From contig CAZYLT010000010.1 of the NCBI GenBank assembly GCA_964648855.1, positions 1 to 32,000 of the forward strand: a stretch of DNA of 32,000 bases, in the 5' to 3' direction. The translations under genes were made by a program, and so were the position numbers. The notes below the pieces were generated by a model. That model ran no database searches and was not told where the DNA came from. It worked only from the letters and a program-made list of their open reading frames with translations. This document shows positions 15,315-29,073 of the stretch, piece after piece. Position 1 is the first letter of the stretch, and each line of letters opens with the position of its first letter. The stretch comes from an uncultured archaeon. Its GTDB lineage: Archaea; Asgardarchaeota; Thorarchaeia; Thorarchaeales; Thorarchaeaceae.

Positions 15315-17342
15315 TTACTCTTCTTGTTCATCCATGCGCGTATAGAGATTGTATTTCATGAAGCTGTAAATGCCTGCTAGCATAATGATGCTAAGCAATC
15401 CCACGGGCGCCACCACCGAAATCCAGTGTTCTTGTGGATCCCAATCGATTCCATCAGGAATCCCATCACCATCTGTGTCGGGATTAGTCGGAGATAGGCA
15501 GTATTCAACCTCATAGGCATCAGACCATCCGTCTCCATCTGTGTCTCTGGAGGTCGGGTCCAACTGATTGAGTACCTCAAAGAGGTCGCTGAGAGAGTCA
15601 CCATCCGAATCTGGAGATAAGGGATCAAGGCCGGCTTCTATTTCAAACCCGTCATCTAAGCCATCATAATCTGTGTCCTTTCGCGTTGGATCGGTCAGAT
15701 ATACTTGCCATTCGTCAAAGTCGCTAATCCCATCGCCATCCGTATCTATCTTTATCGGACTAGTTCCAAGTTCCGCTTCTTCTCCATCAGAAATTCCATC
15801 TGAATCAGTGTCGGTAAGTAAGAGGCTTGAGCCCCCTATGTATTCATCGTAGTCTAGTGCCCCGTCGCCATCAGAATCGGCTGCTGTTGGATCTGTTCCC
15901 AAGTCCACTTCAAAACCATCATCTAAGCCATCAAAATCGCTATCCAAGAAGAACGGATTAGTATTGATTAGACACTCATATTGATTTGATAGGGTATCCC
16001 CATCAAAATCTTCCAATTGCGTGAAATTGAGCCAGAATTTTGTCGTGTTGGATCCAATATTTTCTATATCGATTCTATGCGGCCCAAAGTCATTAGAGAG
16101 ATATCTCAATCGGATGAATCCGTCAGATTCTGTTCGCTGATAGACCACAGAATCCGATTCATCCTCGATTATACTTGCTTGCAGCGTTGTATCATTTGTC
16201 CAGCTGATACTGGCATTCACAAAACTGGAGATTGATATCGTGAAGGTATGCGTGGAACTGTTTGTAGGGTAAAGCGTCCCGTGTTCGTATCGATAGCCTG
16301 CAGAACCCTCTTCTATCATCGCAAGATTAGCGAGAACACAGGCTACTATTGCCACCGCTTCCTTCGGTTTCTGGAAGCTGTAGTACTGACGGTCCCAAGT
16401 ATCATCTTCGGAACTAGCGTACGGGTCCGGGAAGAAACCTTGCGTAACATGAATCGCCGGTCTACCAACCTGCCACATCTCATAAGCAAGCGAGCGCTCT
16501 GCAGTGTCGAGGTCGGTCACCTGTTGAATCCAAGAATGCCCAAACTTTGACGAGAGGTCTATCATCAAATCTGGGATCCAGCCATTTTGATGATACAACT
16601 CCTCTTCACTGAAGCTTCTCAAAGAAATAAGATTGCCATAGACGTACTGGGATCGATGGAAAAGCAATCTATCAAATGCGAAGGTGGTATATGTTTCTAC
16701 ATCATTCTCCTCTAACCACTCAACGAATGCCTTGCTTCCCAAATCTACGTCTTCCTCGATGTGTGCACCATTGATTAGTACAAAGTAGAGGTCATAATTC
16801 AGTTCATAATCACTAAGGACTCGTGCCAACTCCAAAACTGCTGCTACACTTATGCCCGCATCATTCGCTCCAGGATTGTTGTCAGAGTCAATCATTCCAG
16901 ATACTACAATTGCTGGTCGCGGAGTAGGCCCCATACCGGTCTTGATTGCAACAAGGGTATCGTATTTTGTCACTGGCTTGAAGCCAAGCTCATTGTCTGT
17001 GTAATTTAGTAAGGTTTCATTAGCCCACTGCCATGCATCAATAAGATTCTGACTGGGCTGTAGAAAATCAGGATTCTGCGATTCCCAAACTCTGCTAGGG
17101 TACTGCTCCGTTAGCTCCTTCGTAAGGTTTCCGAGGCCATATTCAGATGTTTCATCCCACAGGAATTCAAAAGCCTCCGTCATGTTTACCATAGTCTGTT
17201 CAGAGAGCACAACGGTTCCTTCGGGCGATTGTCCGGTCCGGATAGAAACACTTGGTTGCTCGAATCCACTAAGCACTACTAGTTGACCCAGTGCAAGGAA
17301 GAGGGCGAAACCAACTACTACTCGGAGTTTCTTGGATCTCAT
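15315..17342 (-). CDS. Membrane-anchored surface protein: degenerate M28-peptidase domain, beta-sandwich domain, 9 Ca-binding repeats, C-terminal TM (paralog 1)
   Basis: Likely start is ATG 17342 (MRSKKLRVVVGFALF, signal/TM). PGANDAGISVAAVLELARVL, LYFVL..., LGSKAFV and AFDRL are M28-like. DxDxDG repeats and a TM helix follow. Confidence 0.85.
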   Translation of the reverse strand: MRSKKLRVVVGFALFLALGQLVVLSGFEQPSVSIRTGQSPEGTVVLSEQTMVNMTEAFEFLWDETSEYGLGNLTKELTEQYPSRVWESQNPDFLQPSQNLIDAWQWANETLLNYTDNELGFKPVTKYDTLVAIKTGMGPTPRPAIVVSGMIDSDNNPGANDAGISVAAVLELARVLSDYELNYDLYFVLINGAHIEEDVDLGSKAFVEWLEENDVETYTTFAFDRLLFHRSQYVYGNLISLRSFSEEELYHQNGWIPDLMIDLSSKFGHSWIQQVTDLDTAERSLAYEMWQVGRPAIHVTQGFFPDPYASSEDDTWDRQYYSFQKPKEAVAIVACVLANLAMIEEGSAGYRYEHGTLYPTNSSTHTFTISISSFVNASISWTNDTTLQASIIEDESDSVVYQRTESDGFIRLRYLSNDFGPHRIDIENIGSNTTKFWLNFTQLEDFDGDTLSNQYECLINTNPFFLDSDFDGLDDGFEVDLGTDPTAADSDGDGALDYDEYIGGSSLLLTDTDSDGISDGEEAELGTSPIKIDTDGDGISDFDEWQVYLTDPTRKDTDYDGLDDGFEIEAGLDPLSPDSDGDSLSDLFEVLNQLDPTSRDTDGDGWSDAYEVEYCLSPTNPDTDGDGIPDGIDWDPQEHWISVVAPVGLLSIIMLAGIYSFMKYNLYTRMDEQEE
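15435..16010 (-). repeat. Nine ~22-aa DxDxDGxxDxxE Ca-binding (thrombospondin type-3-like) repeats
   Basis: DFDGDTLSNQYE, DSDFDGLDDGFE, DSDGDGALDYDE, DTDSDGISDGEE, DTDGDGISDFDE, DTDYDGLDDGFE, DSDGDSLSDLFE, DTDGDGWSDAYE, DTDGDGIPDGID. Confidence 0.9.
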
Positions 17343-17423
17343 CCTGCCTCTTCGACTATGAGTCCGATTAAATAACTTGCCAAGCCAGCATCTACTTATT
17401 GAGGTTGCTGAAAAAATCACAAG

Positions 17424-19424
17424 TCATCCTCTCCGTAGATACTCTTGGCGCTTCTTCAGCAGAAAAATCATTATTGCTATCGTGAAAATTCCGAGACCTA
17501 TGATGGGCAAAGCAGTTATCCAGTGCTCTCTGGGCGCCCAGTCAGCCCCATCGGGAATGCCGTCCCCATCCGTATCGGGGTCGAATGGTTTCAGACAGTG
17601 TTCTACTTCATATGCATCAGTTAGGCCGTCAGAGTCAGTATCTGCAGATAAGGGATTGAGTCCATTCAATACCTCGAATAGATCGTTGAGTCCGTCGCCA
17701 TCAGAATCTGGGTTGGCAGGGTCGGTACCGGCCTCAAGCTCAAGCGGGTCAATAAGACCATCTGAATCCGTGTCATTGGACAAAGGATTCCATCCGTTTT
17801 CGAGCTCAACGTTATCTGGAATAGTATCGCTATCCGTGTCATTGCTTGTGGGATCCATCCCTAGGTCGATTTCTTCACCATCAAGAATGCCATCAGAGTC
17901 TGTATCCTGAACAAGCGGATCTGAACCAATGATATACTCTATTCCATCCATTGCCCCATCCGAGTCGGAGTCTTGATTTCGCGGGTTTGTACCCAGCTCT
18001 CGCTCTAGGTCATCCCGAAGATAGTCATTATCAGAGTCCTCTGAGAGCGAGTTTGTTCCAAAGATGAATTCCTCATGGTCGTCTAGGTTGTCCTTATCAT
18101 AATCATGCCAATGAGAGATGTTGTATTGGAATATTGCCGACTCATTGCCTAGATTCTCTACAGTTATATTATGCACACCCTTGTTTGTGGGCATGTATTC
18201 TATTTCAATATCCCAGTCAGATTCGTTTACAGAATAGGCCAAAGTGCCAAAGGGGTCAATGATATCAACTTTTAGCGTGGTATTTGCCACCCATATGATG
18301 GTGGCGTTAAGAGATGACATGCTTGATACAGGGACATTGTATCTTCTAGTAGCATCAACTGCAATACTGTTTGACCCGGAGAACAAAGGCTTCTTGCCAT
18401 TCCCCATGTATCCTAGAAATGCCGCCAAACAGGCAGCAATTCCCGCTGCTTCTTTTGCTTGCGAGTAATCATATACAGTGATATCCCACTGATCATTTGG
18501 TCCTCCTCCCAACCCGGCTGCGCTATACTGGGAAAATGAGAATCCAGGTATTCCCCACACCCAAGCCTCCTCTGCTCCTGTTCCTGACCACAAGGCTGTC
18601 TCTGGGTCATGATTGCCATAGACTTTTCCCTGTCCAACTCTCGATGAGCCCTGCTCCGCCAATTGTACAACGAGTTCTTCGGAACTGAATCCACTCTCAA
18701 GTGTATTGTAGTGAAGTGGAACCATATCGCCGAGTGTTTCCCCGCTATCCCTGTAGAGAAGGCGATCGAACCAGAACAGTGCAGATGGCTTGGTCCCAGT
18801 TTCATTGAGGTGCTCCAACAGGCTCTGTATTCCTAGATTTCCGGATACAGAGCCACCATATGTAGAAGCATAAGCGTTTACAAGCACGTAGTAAATGTCG
18901 TTGGTGAAGTTGTAGCTATGGAGTACACGGGAAATCTCAAGTACTACGCCTACTGCCGCCCCCCACATATTCGCACCTGGAGAATATCTGCCTGCAATGT
19001 TTGTTGCGAAAACAATTGGTGCTGAATTTTGGTCAGTTCCGTGTTGTATGGCAACGAGACTCTTCTCTTCCGTCACAAAGCCAAATTTCAGTTCATTACC
19101 CGTATACGATTTCAGTGTTGAATTGGCGTAATTCCATGCCCCAATGAGTGGGTCAGACCCTTCTTTATGTAAGGGAAACCAGACACGATTCTTATAGTCT
19201 TCAGATAGCACCTTGGTGATTGATTGGATATTCGCTTGGCTGATGGAGGAATATATTGCGCTCCAAGTATCGTAAACTTCAAGCACTTCATTCTGAGCCA
19301 GTACATGATCAAGAGAATGCAATTTTTCAGCTTTTATTCCCGTCGTAGTCGGACCATCGAGAAACGATAGGGATGAAGCTATCATTACAAAAACAACAAA
19401 AAAGGCAAGCGTTCTCCTTCTCAT
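17424..19424 (-). CDS. Membrane-anchored surface protein: highly degenerate M28-like domain, 9 Ca-binding repeats, C-terminal TM (paralog 2)
   Basis: Likely start is ATG 19424 (MRRRTLAFFVVF). PGANMWGAAVGVVLEISRVL and FDRLLY align with paralog 1. Same repeat block and EHWI-TM-basic tail. Confidence 0.85.
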   Translation of the reverse strand: MRRRTLAFFVVFVMIASSLSFLDGPTTTGIKAEKLHSLDHVLAQNEVLEVYDTWSAIYSSISQANIQSITKVLSEDYKNRVWFPLHKEGSDPLIGAWNYANSTLKSYTGNELKFGFVTEEKSLVAIQHGTDQNSAPIVFATNIAGRYSPGANMWGAAVGVVLEISRVLHSYNFTNDIYYVLVNAYASTYGGSVSGNLGIQSLLEHLNETGTKPSALFWFDRLLYRDSGETLGDMVPLHYNTLESGFSSEELVVQLAEQGSSRVGQGKVYGNHDPETALWSGTGAEEAWVWGIPGFSFSQYSAAGLGGGPNDQWDITVYDYSQAKEAAGIAACLAAFLGYMGNGKKPLFSGSNSIAVDATRRYNVPVSSMSSLNATIIWVANTTLKVDIIDPFGTLAYSVNESDWDIEIEYMPTNKGVHNITVENLGNESAIFQYNISHWHDYDKDNLDDHEEFIFGTNSLSEDSDNDYLRDDLERELGTNPRNQDSDSDGAMDGIEYIIGSDPLVQDTDSDGILDGEEIDLGMDPTSNDTDSDTIPDNVELENGWNPLSNDTDSDGLIDPLELEAGTDPANPDSDGDGLNDLFEVLNGLNPLSADTDSDGLTDAYEVEHCLKPFDPDTDGDGIPDGADWAPREHWITALPIIGLGIFTIAIMIFLLKKRQEYLRRG
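17531..18104 (-). repeat. Nine ~22-aa DxDxDG Ca-binding repeats
   Basis: DYDKDNLDDHEE, DSDNDYLRDDLE, DSDSDGAMDGIE, DTDSDGILDGEE, DTDSDTIPDNVE, DTDSDGLIDPLE, DSDGDGLNDLFE, DTDSDGLTDAYE, DTDGDGIPDGAD. Confidence 0.9.
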
Positions 19425-19535
19425 ACTAACTCTGTCGAAAGGCAAGCTCAGTTATATCTTACGAATCCTGCTGATTTTCATTGCTATTGTAGTAAGCTTA
19501 AAAATCACTTGAGGTCGTCAAGCTGGAGGAGCAAA
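19425..19535. promoter_or_regulatory. Divergent promoter region
   Basis: About 110 bp between divergent starts. TATA-like cttaaaaa at about 19497-19504 (+) and gatataac at 19451-19458 (-). SD-like GGAGG at about 19525 before ATG 19536. Confidence 0.45.
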
Positions 19536-27267: not shown

Positions 27268-29073
27268 ATGAACAGAAATCAAGCAGTGATATTGACCCTG
27301 GTCCTACTCGTTTTCCTTGGTTCAGTGACATCCCTTATATTCTGGATTGGAAATCAATATCCTCTACGTCATTCTTCCCCTGCATCTGCTGACTTCTATG
27401 AAACCGATTATTGGGATCTCGGGCCGGCAGAAGATGAGCCACTGGATATCGTCAACATTTCAACCTCGGTTGTCACACATGAAACGAATTCGACACAAGT
27501 TGCACTAGAACGATGGCAATTCACCTATCTAAGTGAAGAGGTCAATTCGATTGAAGTAAGAATCCACTCGACGCTCACTATGCAAGTGAACCAAAGTGGT
27601 GCTCAGCCTGCTATCCTAATCCTTCACGGTTACGGTAGCAGTTCCTCTACATTCATGGGAATAATGAATGATCTCGCTGCAAACGGTATCGTTACTATGG
27701 CTATCGACGCTCCTGACTCTGGAGAATCCACTGCATATCCTCCTCTGAACTCGGACACGTTCTTGGATGTGTCTGAAGGTCCTGAGTCTGCCCATCTTTA
27801 TCATTCTGTATGGTCGGCGGCTCGGGCTGTGACCCTACTTGATTCTCTCCCCTTTGTTTCAGATATGATTATTGCTGGAGGCTCTATGGGCGGGATGCAG
27901 TCTATCATTCTTTCAGCCATAGACGAACGAATCGATGGCACAATACCGATGATTTCAGCCGGCAACCTGGATGAGTCTCTTCGCTCAGGTACCTTCTTGA
28001 ACAGTCTATTTCTTCCCGATAAAGAACTGGATTCAGAGGCAATAAATGACGCTTTAAGATGGTTCGATCCAATTGCCTATGCCCGGAAATTAACAGCCCC
28101 TGTCCTGATGTTTGCGGGCACCAATGACCCCTTCTTTCCTCTATTGTGCATCCACGATACCATTCATGCGATAACCGCCCCGCTGACTTTGAGTTTGTTA
28201 CCTAATGCAGGTCATTTCATTGACCCTACTTGGACCACTGTCATCCTGGAGTGGGTTGATACAGTGTTTAGAAATGGCGGAGAGTATCCATCAATTACTG
28301 TCACTCAACGAGAAGAGCTTACAATATACGGTTGGACCTTACGAATATCTGCTAATGTTACTGCCGATTTGCCTTTGAGAGTATGGTGGAGGACTGGTGA
28401 TCCTGGCTCGCCATGGCAAATGTCTGAGATGGAACTAACTCCTCATGGCTTCGTTTTTGATTTGACTCCAACTCATATAGGCAGAATCTCTTTCTTTGTG
28501 AGTGGAATGCGTGATGGCATTATCTATGCATCATCCGAGATTCATATTGCTCGGGGCGGGAGTTTTATAGTTCCGCTCATTAGTCTGCTTTCCGGGGTAG
28601 GGCTAATTGCAATGAGTAAGACTACGGGGTGGCATCCGACCCTTGCGAAAACAATCAGAGAACTCCCTATCATTGTCGGTATCGTCATGATGGTATCCGG
28701 TTTTCTACTTCCTTACTTTGGAATCAGTGGGCGAGTTGAAATTTCCCTTTTGGATTTCATGGAGATCTTCGGGAATTATCTTGGTTTGAGCGGATGGTTC
28801 CTCTCTCTCATCATAGTTCTGTTCTCTCTGATCATTTCATTGTCATCTACTCGCCATGGAATACCCCTGCAATTGACGGTTATTGTATGGATTCCTATTT
28901 TGGTTGCCCTATCAATTGCATACTTTTTCTTCGCTGGCGTATTTGCAGTTTCTGGAGTGCTATTCACTGTCTATGCAGGACCTGGAACATTTCTCCTACT
29001 TCTTGCAGTTCCAGTAATGCTGATTCTTGAGTCCTTGTTCAGAAAGCATTCGCAGTTTCTCAGTAGTCACTAG
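27268..29073 (+). CDS. Membrane-anchored extracellular alpha/beta hydrolase (acetyl-esterase/S9-like) with a multi-pass C-terminus
   Basis: N-terminal TM, LHGYG, nucleophile GGSMGG, acid GTNDPFF, base NAGH, and about 5 hydrophobic helices at the C-terminus. Confidence 0.85.
   Translation: MNRNQAVILTLVLLVFLGSVTSLIFWIGNQYPLRHSSPASADFYETDYWDLGPAEDEPLDIVNISTSVVTHETNSTQVALERWQFTYLSEEVNSIEVRIHSTLTMQVNQSGAQPAILILHGYGSSSSTFMGIMNDLAANGIVTMAIDAPDSGESTAYPPLNSDTFLDVSEGPESAHLYHSVWSAARAVTLLDSLPFVSDMIIAGGSMGGMQSIILSAIDERIDGTIPMISAGNLDESLRSGTFLNSLFLPDKELDSEAINDALRWFDPIAYARKLTAPVLMFAGTNDPFFPLLCIHDTIHAITAPLTLSLLPNAGHFIDPTWTTVILEWVDTVFRNGGEYPSITVTQREELTIYGWTLRISANVTADLPLRVWWRTGDPGSPWQMSEMELTPHGFVFDLTPTHIGRISFFVSGMRDGIIYASSEIHIARGGSFIVPLISLLSGVGLIAMSKTTGWHPTLAKTIRELPIIVGIVMMVSGFLLPYFGISGRVEISLLDFMEIFGNYLGLSGWFLSLIIVLFSLIISLSSTRHGIPLQLTVIVWIPILVALSIAYFFFAGVFAVSGVLFTVYAGPGTFLLLLAVPVMLILESLFRKHSQFLSSH

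Follow-up and report, generated by a model that had tools for sequence, protein, structure and literature searches.

We analysed a 32,000-nucleotide stretch of DNA (hereafter the window; positions 1 to 32,000 of contig CAZYLT010000010.1, GenBank assembly GCA_964648855.1) from an uncultured archaeon of the Thorarchaeaceae, in which two neighboring genes on the minus strand encode paralogous proteins with M28 peptidase-like heads that have lost most of their zinc ligands. The host genome assembly comprises 3.1 Mb in 62 contigs and is 94.6% complete. An original prediction, made from the letters of the window, had suspected an Asgard host and had reported both genes as intact; the homologs that we retrieved carry the source name Candidatus Thorarchaeota, in agreement with the former, and both open reading frames (ORFs) are indeed uninterrupted. 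Paralog 1 (P0001) occupies 15315..17420 as an ORF of 701 amino acids (aa) counted from a GTG at 17420, and paralog 2 (P0002) occupies 17424..19445 as an ORF of 673 aa counted from a TTG at 19445. The likely start of P0001 is the ATG at 17342, which has GAGG ahead of it and yields the 675-aa form held in the databases; that of P0002 is likely the ATG at 19424. The stop codon of P0002 and the GTG of the P0001 ORF are separated by 3 nt. Aligned from end to end, the two proteins share 38% identity (E 4e-123), and each represents a group of relatives, referred to here as clade 1 (P0001) and clade 2 (P0002).

P0001 and P0002 share one layout: a hydrophobic N-terminus, an M28-fold head of approximately 300 residues, an eight-stranded beta-sandwich of approximately 95 residues, a series of thrombospondin type 3 (TSP3) repeats and a C-terminal transmembrane (TM) helix. 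In P0001 a hydropathy scan located the N-terminal hydrophobic segment at aa 31-54 (17259..17330; all features of the pair lie on the minus strand), which we read as a signal peptide or an N-terminal anchor. It is followed by the head (aa 77-371, 16308..17192), delimited by Pfam, an AlphaFold2 (AF2) model and structure and ligand alignments; by the beta-sandwich (aa 375-468, eight strands, 16017..16298), recognized in the AF2 model and by profile matches; by the stalk of TSP3-type repeats (15441..16010); and by the TM helix (15357..15428), which has DWDPQEHW ahead of it and a short basic tail after it. The corresponding parts of P0002 are the head (aa 54-350, 18396..19286; AF2 model and ligand alignment), the beta-sandwich (aa 352-445, 18111..18392; AF2 model), the stalk (17538..18104) and the TM helix (17451..17525), here preceded by DWAPREHW. 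The interval 16250-19300, in which the original prediction had placed the two M28 domains, takes in both heads. Each stalk was identified by PF18884 (TSP3; E 3.8e-16 for P0001 and 4.3e-14 for P0002) and by a motif scan that found eight DxDxD repeats at a 22-residue spacing in either protein, and membership in this repeat family suggests that the stalks bind calcium. The two proteins each contain 10-11 N-x-S/T sequons, and because these occur together with hydrophobic segments at both ends, a cell-surface location is expected. The motif DW(D/A)P(Q/R)EHW that abuts the C-terminal helix (15429-15452 and 17526-17549) occurs in both clades and is without counterpart in the active paralogs described below; it may serve in sorting, processing or packing. 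Weak matches to the beta-sandwich were the jelly-roll at the C-terminus of the Thermococcus subtilisin Tk-SP (3afg; E 1.6e-3) and the PPC domain.

The assignment of the heads was examined by profile and structure comparisons. Pfam Peptidase_M28 (PF04389) matched P0001 with 39.7 bits (cut-off 21.3; E 5.6e-10), and the protein aligned with the aminopeptidases 2ek8, 5gne and 6hc6 of the PDB. PF04389 gave no match to P0002 alone, which was assigned by profile and fold only; across the family it matched 22 of 26 members at E<=10. A profile of these 26 members retrieved YwaD/BSAP, 2ek8, LapA and AAP from the PDB with E-values of 2.6e-8 to 2e-4. The AF2 models of the ectodomains had predicted local distance difference test scores of 87.8 (P0001) and 88.2 (P0002) and predicted template modelling scores of 0.88 and 0.90, respectively. 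Both models superposed on AAP, LapA/LapB, 2ek8 and Aspergillus LapA with Z-scores of 28.5-30.1 and root-mean-square deviations of 2.5-2.9 over 255-269 residues, the Z-scores being 29.3-30.1 for AAP, LapA/LapB and 2ek8 alone. As modelled, both heads adopt the M28 fold (the alpha/beta aminopeptidase fold of the MH clan) over the whole domain, and the structure search with the predicted models thereby upheld the earlier assignment, with Z-scores of about 29-30 to active M28 aminopeptidases. The secreted M28 leucyl aminopeptidases of bacteria and fungi (AAP of Vibrio/Aeromonas proteolytica, 1AMP/1RTQ; LapA/LapB of Legionella, 6ESL/5GNE; Aneurinibacillus, 2EK8; Aspergillus LapA, 6ZEQ) share with the pair this whole-domain fold and the PGAN..LE.AR motifs. 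They differ in possessing the full H/D/E/D/H dizinc site and the catalytic Glu, whereas P0001 and P0002 lack both His.

The state of the zinc site was read from an alignment of 135 M28 domains, which comprised the family, the host-genome paralogs and the best 150 matches of an exhaustive profile search. We took the five co-catalytic metal ligands of M28 enzymes to be those of AAP (His97, Asp117, Glu152, Asp179 and His256), with Glu151 as the presumed general base, and read the corresponding columns off the ligand-complete paralog P0028, the assignment being made by sequence and profile alignments anchored on active paralogs. P0001 reads SGMIDS (no His), PGANDAG (Asp kept), FAFDRLL, RSLAYEMW for SDHxxF and PYASSEDDTWD for YHTxxDTWD. 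Its aligned positions hold Ile/Met at His97 and Ala/Ser at His256, while the equivalents of AAP D99, D117 and D179 are retained. Its Glu-Glu stretch, NGAHIEEDVDLGS, carries the pair 3 residues later than in the active paralogs, with a 3-residue insertion after the strand. P0002 reads TNIAG, PGANMWG, FWFDRLL and GGGPNDQWD and has no Glu-Glu; the equivalent of D179 (FDR) is the sole ligand position retained. In the active clade of the same build, His97, Asp99, Asp117, Glu151-Glu152, Asp179 and the His of the YH motif are each present in 100% of the sequences. Among approximately 23 sequence clusters of clade 1, His97 is replaced by Val, Ile, Met or Thr and is never His; Asp99 is kept in 87%, Asp117 in 91% and Asp179 in 78%; the Glu151-Glu152 position is variable, with a Glu-Glu or Asp-Glu pair in 7 of 21 aligned members; and the YH His is absent except in P0032, where a His fell into that column in one alignment run and one column earlier in another. 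In the 15 clusters of clade 2, His97, the Glu-Glu pair and the YH His are all replaced, Asp99 has become Ala, Ser or Gly, Asp117 has become Ala, Gly or Met, and Asp179 is mostly Ser. These columns indicate that ligand loss is a property of both clades, well beyond the host genome, and that the heads are unable to run the M28 co-catalytic zinc mechanism. They agree with the original prediction, which had quoted the motifs of both paralogs correctly, had described the zinc ligands as lost from both heads and had considered paralog 2 devoid of almost every one.

The origin of the pair could be traced within the host genome and its relatives. The host genome gave ten M28-profile matches, of which four, besides P0001 and P0002, are long ORFs. 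P0028 (632 aa; L002:559-2457, minus strand, contig C1) and P0029 (694 aa; L003:319-2403, minus strand, contig C1) have the same build as the pair and a complete set of ligands, with the motifs GGHYD[TS], GANDDGTG, [AS]EE, [VI]DML and AYH; their counterparts in the complete Thorarchaeota genome CP070761.1 adjoin one another (3085591 and 3087940). P0030 (699 aa; L005:1030-3129, plus strand, which is contig C5 at about 77956-80055) also has this build and is differently degenerate, as it retains HLD and FDE, reads GVNQNAGG and has neither the Glu-Glu pair nor the final His. The last, of 663 aa (locus L004), also belongs to M28 but has a different build. In the exhaustive profile search, the two clades formed the top step, with about 22 clusters at E<1e-57. 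The next tier, at E 1e-32 to 1e-20, consisted of proteins of 600-660 residues that are mostly ligand-complete, and TSP3 repeats were present in 32 of the 96 best outsiders. The nearest sequence neighbors beyond the two clades (E 1e-32 to 1e-25) are ligand-complete Asgard proteins (P0028, P0029 and P0053-P0078) that likewise combine an N-terminal hydrophobic segment, an M28 head, a beta-sandwich, TSP3 repeats and a C-terminal TM helix. In contrast to the pair, these relatives have all ligands and no DWxPxEHW ahead of the anchor, and their TSP3 repeats are less numerous and less regular.

A domain phylogeny was inferred with IQ-TREE (LG+C20 PMSF, quick search, SH-aLRT supports) from 121 rows and 295 columns, without eukaryotic nicastrin, nicalin or TfR sequences. 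Clade 1 (support 97) and clade 2 (99) were recovered as sisters (100, with a stem of 0.91) and were placed near the active same-build clade (99), whose 25 rows include P0028 and P0029. Clades 1 and 2 were linked weakly (89, drawn open) to the P0030 clade (100). By source name, clades 1 and 2 contain only Thorarchaeota, the active clade contains Thorarchaeota and Lokiarchaeota, and further relatives come from Hod- and Odinarchaeota. The tree and the shared build indicate that the pair arose from active archaeal surface aminopeptidases. As both His are absent from the two sister clades (apart from P0032), parsimony places the loss of both His in a single step before the duplication that separated the clades, and suggests that clade 2 was stripped of further ligands afterwards. 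At least eight changes between a complete and an incomplete ligand set are needed on the tree of 121 domains, so ligand loss recurs in this M28 group. The P0030 clade (with P0069, P0076, P0089 and P0096) resembles the pair in its architecture and in having lost ligands while being conserved (47% ortholog identity). Unlike the pair, it kept the first His and D179, replaced the bridging Asp by Gln or Asn, and lost Glu-Glu and the last His, and its ligand loss was probably an independent event. Within the ligand-complete clade, P0057, P0059, P0062 and P0065 form a subclade (96) with partly degenerate sites (for example HDG..HD and HDC..LF), and here the zinc site appears to have decayed independently once more.

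We compared the conservation of the heads with that of the live paralogs. CP070761.1 carries the same five paralogs as the host genome, and over head and sandwich the ortholog identities are 48% for clade 1, 39% for clade 2, 47% for the P0030 type and 40-48% for the active paralogs. Because these identities are comparable, the dead heads evolve no faster than the live ones, which indicates purifying selection of about the same strength on both. A pseudogene or an artefact was considered and rejected, as about 38 sequence clusters have intact ORFs and diverge to the same extent as the live paralogs. Positions that are invariant or nearly so in both clades include (P0001 numbering) Asn186 (of GAN), Glu197, Arg251, Glu314, Trp316, Gln327 and Asp340 (of DTWD). 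Arg251 directly follows the equivalent of Asp179, where active proteins have Met (AAP Met180); Glu314 and Trp316 lie in S-L-A-Y-E-M-W, formerly S-D-H-x-S-F; and Gln327 occupies the position of a Glu that is conserved in active proteins. PDB entries 3b35 and 3b3v contain AAP with mutations at Met180 and Ser228, both of which we take to be second-shell residues of the zinc site. Of the two mappings, only that of Arg251 onto Met180 is secure, by adjacency to Asp179; Ser228 may lie in the SDH motif of AAP. The new invariant residues probably sit at the former metal center, which suggests a pocket that was remodelled and is still in use. Arg251 is possibly salt-bridged to surviving carboxylates, so that an Arg/Glu network would stand in place of the metal.

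The arrangement of the two genes is also conserved. In four other genomes (loci L011, L014, L015 and L016), a clade-1 gene has a clade-2 gene immediately upstream, whose stop codon overlaps or abuts the clade-1 start codon. A further protein, P0031 (MDF1538913.1, 1351 aa, from another Thorarchaeota metagenome-assembled genome), joins a clade-2 unit to a clade-1 unit, in that order; either the two genes are truly fused there, or the gene call ran through the boundary within the tandem pair. Conserved pairing of this kind fits co-expression and perhaps a hetero-oligomer. A complex prediction with the two ectodomains returned a score of 0.00, which is no verdict and counts neither way.

Taken together, we consider it likely that P0001 and P0002 are conserved non-catalytic binding or scaffold proteins, that is, pseudo-aminopeptidases on the cell surface. 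Each protein would be exported and would stay anchored in the membrane through its C-terminal helix, with head and beta-sandwich atop the eight-repeat stalk. Their ancestor would have been an active Asgard surface aminopeptidase of identical build, in which both His disappeared before a duplication gave rise to clade 1, with three active-site Asp, and clade 2, with almost none. Selection would then have held the heads and fixed new invariants near the old ligands, namely the Arg after the D179 equivalent, the Glu and Trp where SDHxxF used to be and the Gln in place of a conserved Glu. The two genes would be co-expressed, and their products would bind or scaffold at the surface, without hydrolysis, by means of the remodelled pocket; the working form would probably be a clade-2/clade-1 hetero-oligomer, perhaps together with the live paralogs. 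A retained non-catalytic role, as the original prediction had proposed, is likely because the ORFs are intact and the heads are under constraint. Several findings weigh against this interpretation. The Glu-Glu pair is still carried by P0001 and its two closest relatives, other clade-1 members reading DE, DK, NL, DP, SQ and the like. Clade 1 also retains a carboxylate cluster (D178, D187, D250 and E314) together with a fairly conserved His324 (87%), and this cluster may form a single site for a cation other than zinc. Finally, one Thorarchaeota genome (locus L012) carries the clade-1 gene only, so a clade-2/clade-1 heterodimer is not obligatory.

Of the competing accounts, the one that survives best, and is nonetheless unlikely, sees the heads as mere stable globular caps, devoid of a specific binding pocket, on a stalk or envelope protein. 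An envelope protein could well have such a long and regular TSP3 stalk, two hydrophobic ends and many sequons, no ligand or partner is known, and clade 2 has been stripped of nearly every polar active-site residue. However, a functionless pocket should drift, yet the heads diverge no faster than live enzymes, and some of the best-conserved positions in both clades adjoin the former ligands (the Arg in FDR, the Asn in GAN, the Gln, and Glu and Trp in AYEMW/EEAW). A more elaborate form of that role seems rather improbable in its details. Here the translationally coupled pair would be a heteromeric, calcium-stiffened receptor, whose remodelled, metal-free pockets would capture the N-termini of peptides or proteins; it would feed them to the live paralogs or else couple mechanically to the neighboring MacB/FtsX-type ABC machine. 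If true, it would be an archaeal counterpart of pseudo-peptidase adaptors of the EnvC and nicastrin type, independently evolved in the lineage closest to eukaryotes.

A related proposal, which we regard as doubtful, was suggested by the neighborhood. EnvC is a dead peptidase-like adaptor of bacterial FtsEX, and by analogy the pair might be the extracellular adaptor of a divergent MacB/FtsX-type ABC machine. An ABC-FtsX-FtsX-ABC operon divergently adjoins the pair in the window and in L011, L012, L014 and L015. This adjacency carries little weight because the entire 20-kb region is collinear at those four loci, down to unrelated housekeeping genes (OGG, PriL, a methyltransferase, a thioredoxin-like protein, DUF763 and an MBL hydrolase). 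Moreover, a small gene for a MobB-like NTPase intervenes between the ABC operon and the pair at three loci (L011:7421-7921, L014:7309-7890 and L015:7510-7968), and the other paralogs of the family do not adjoin ABC genes.

It is very unlikely that clade 1, at least, is still a metalloenzyme, whose altered, carboxylate-rich site would take up one metal only or a cation other than zinc. The equivalents of D99, D117 and D179 in 78-91% of clade 1, the new invariant E314, the His324 and the Glu-Glu of P0001 would all be in keeping with such an enzyme. Against these stand the absence of both His throughout (again excepting P0032), the variability of the general-base Glu position in clade 1, and clade 2, which has the same remodelled residues without carboxylates at the ligand positions.

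The original prediction had also likened the pair to nicastrin, nicalin and the transferrin receptor, offering convergence as an equally plausible alternative. TfR1, GPAA1, nicastrin and nicalin are eukaryotic membrane-anchored proteins with inactive M28-like ectodomains that serve binding or scaffold roles, and in their membrane anchor and metal-free M28-like ectodomain they do resemble the pair. TfR differs from it in having PA and helical domains, and none of the eukaryotic proteins has a TSP3 stalk. In the family, PA and TFR_dimer domains were not found by Pfam, and the modelled M28 domain is uninterrupted, with the beta-sandwich next to it. Among PDB representatives, both models matched TfR1 with Z-scores of 26.2-26.6, GCPII with 22.3-22.8 and the GPI-transamidase chain 7w72_A, probably GPAA1, with 19.3-19.7; M20 and M42 enzymes made up the remainder of the best 50 structural matches. 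Neither nicastrin nor nicalin was among these best 50 matches (lowest Z 18.1) in two exhaustive searches, nor among the matches listed by Foldseek and by a second VIA comparison, an absence that is not an exclusion. When the family profile was run against the PDB with a limit of E<=10, it retrieved only M28 aminopeptidases and beta-sandwich matches. The Nicastrin profile PF05450 found no match at E<=10 in the set of 26 family members and nothing in the host genome, compared with 22 of 96 ordinary M28 relatives that it cross-matched (best E 1.2e-7). The host genome was also searched with PF06550, which gave no match. Elsewhere in it, on contig C41 and unlinked to the M28 locus, an ORF for a polytopic membrane protein of 292 aa (L017:97-975, plus strand) has a sub-threshold match to Presenilin (PF01080, E 2.8e-4) together with GVGD and PAIP motifs, and is a possible GxGD intramembrane aspartyl protease.

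That the pair are archaeal homologs or forerunners of nicastrin- or nicalin-type ectodomains is extremely unlikely: the shared design of a single C-terminal anchor and an inactive M28-fold ectodomain, the Asgard host and the weak presenilin-like gene speak for it, but that gene lies on a separate contig, the sister groups are active Asgard paralogs, clades 1 and 2 are confined to Thorarchaeota, PF05450 prefers ordinary M28 relatives, and nicastrin and nicalin are missing from the best 50 structural matches even though M20 and M42 enzymes are listed there. The proposed evolutionary link was thus not borne out, the nearest relatives being active Asgard paralogs and the closest solved folds those of bacterial and fungal leucyl aminopeptidases. 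Convergence is the better reading, because the tree gives descent from active Asgard paralogs and no specific sequence or profile link to the eukaryotic proteins was found. The nicastrin/nicalin link is removed as unsupported.

A literature search on nicastrin/nicalin, M28 and thrombospondin type 3 in Asgard archaea or Thorarchaeota returned nothing on this family. Within family M28 the pair count as non-peptidase homologues; their build is unusual, their tandem arrangement is conserved, and the literature searched does not describe them. An Asgard surface enzyme family has repeatedly given rise to conserved dead copies, and one tandem pair has long been retained across the Thorarchaeota. Several family members are annotated at NCBI as 'M28 family peptidase', a public label that is corrected here for these proteins, and counts of extracellular peptidases in sediment Asgard genomes should omit these genes. 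If the proposed binding function is true, the pair would be a tractable model for the conversion of an enzyme into a receptor.

Two observations concern the surroundings of the pair in the window. The MobB-like gene of the three other loci is missing from the corresponding place there, and the ABC ATPase gene begins 64 nt from the paralog 2 ORF. After the second ABC ATPase gene, an ORF at 27268-29073 (plus strand) encodes a 601-aa alpha/beta-hydrolase with AXE1 and PhoPQ-related matches, and the same arrangement is seen in L012.

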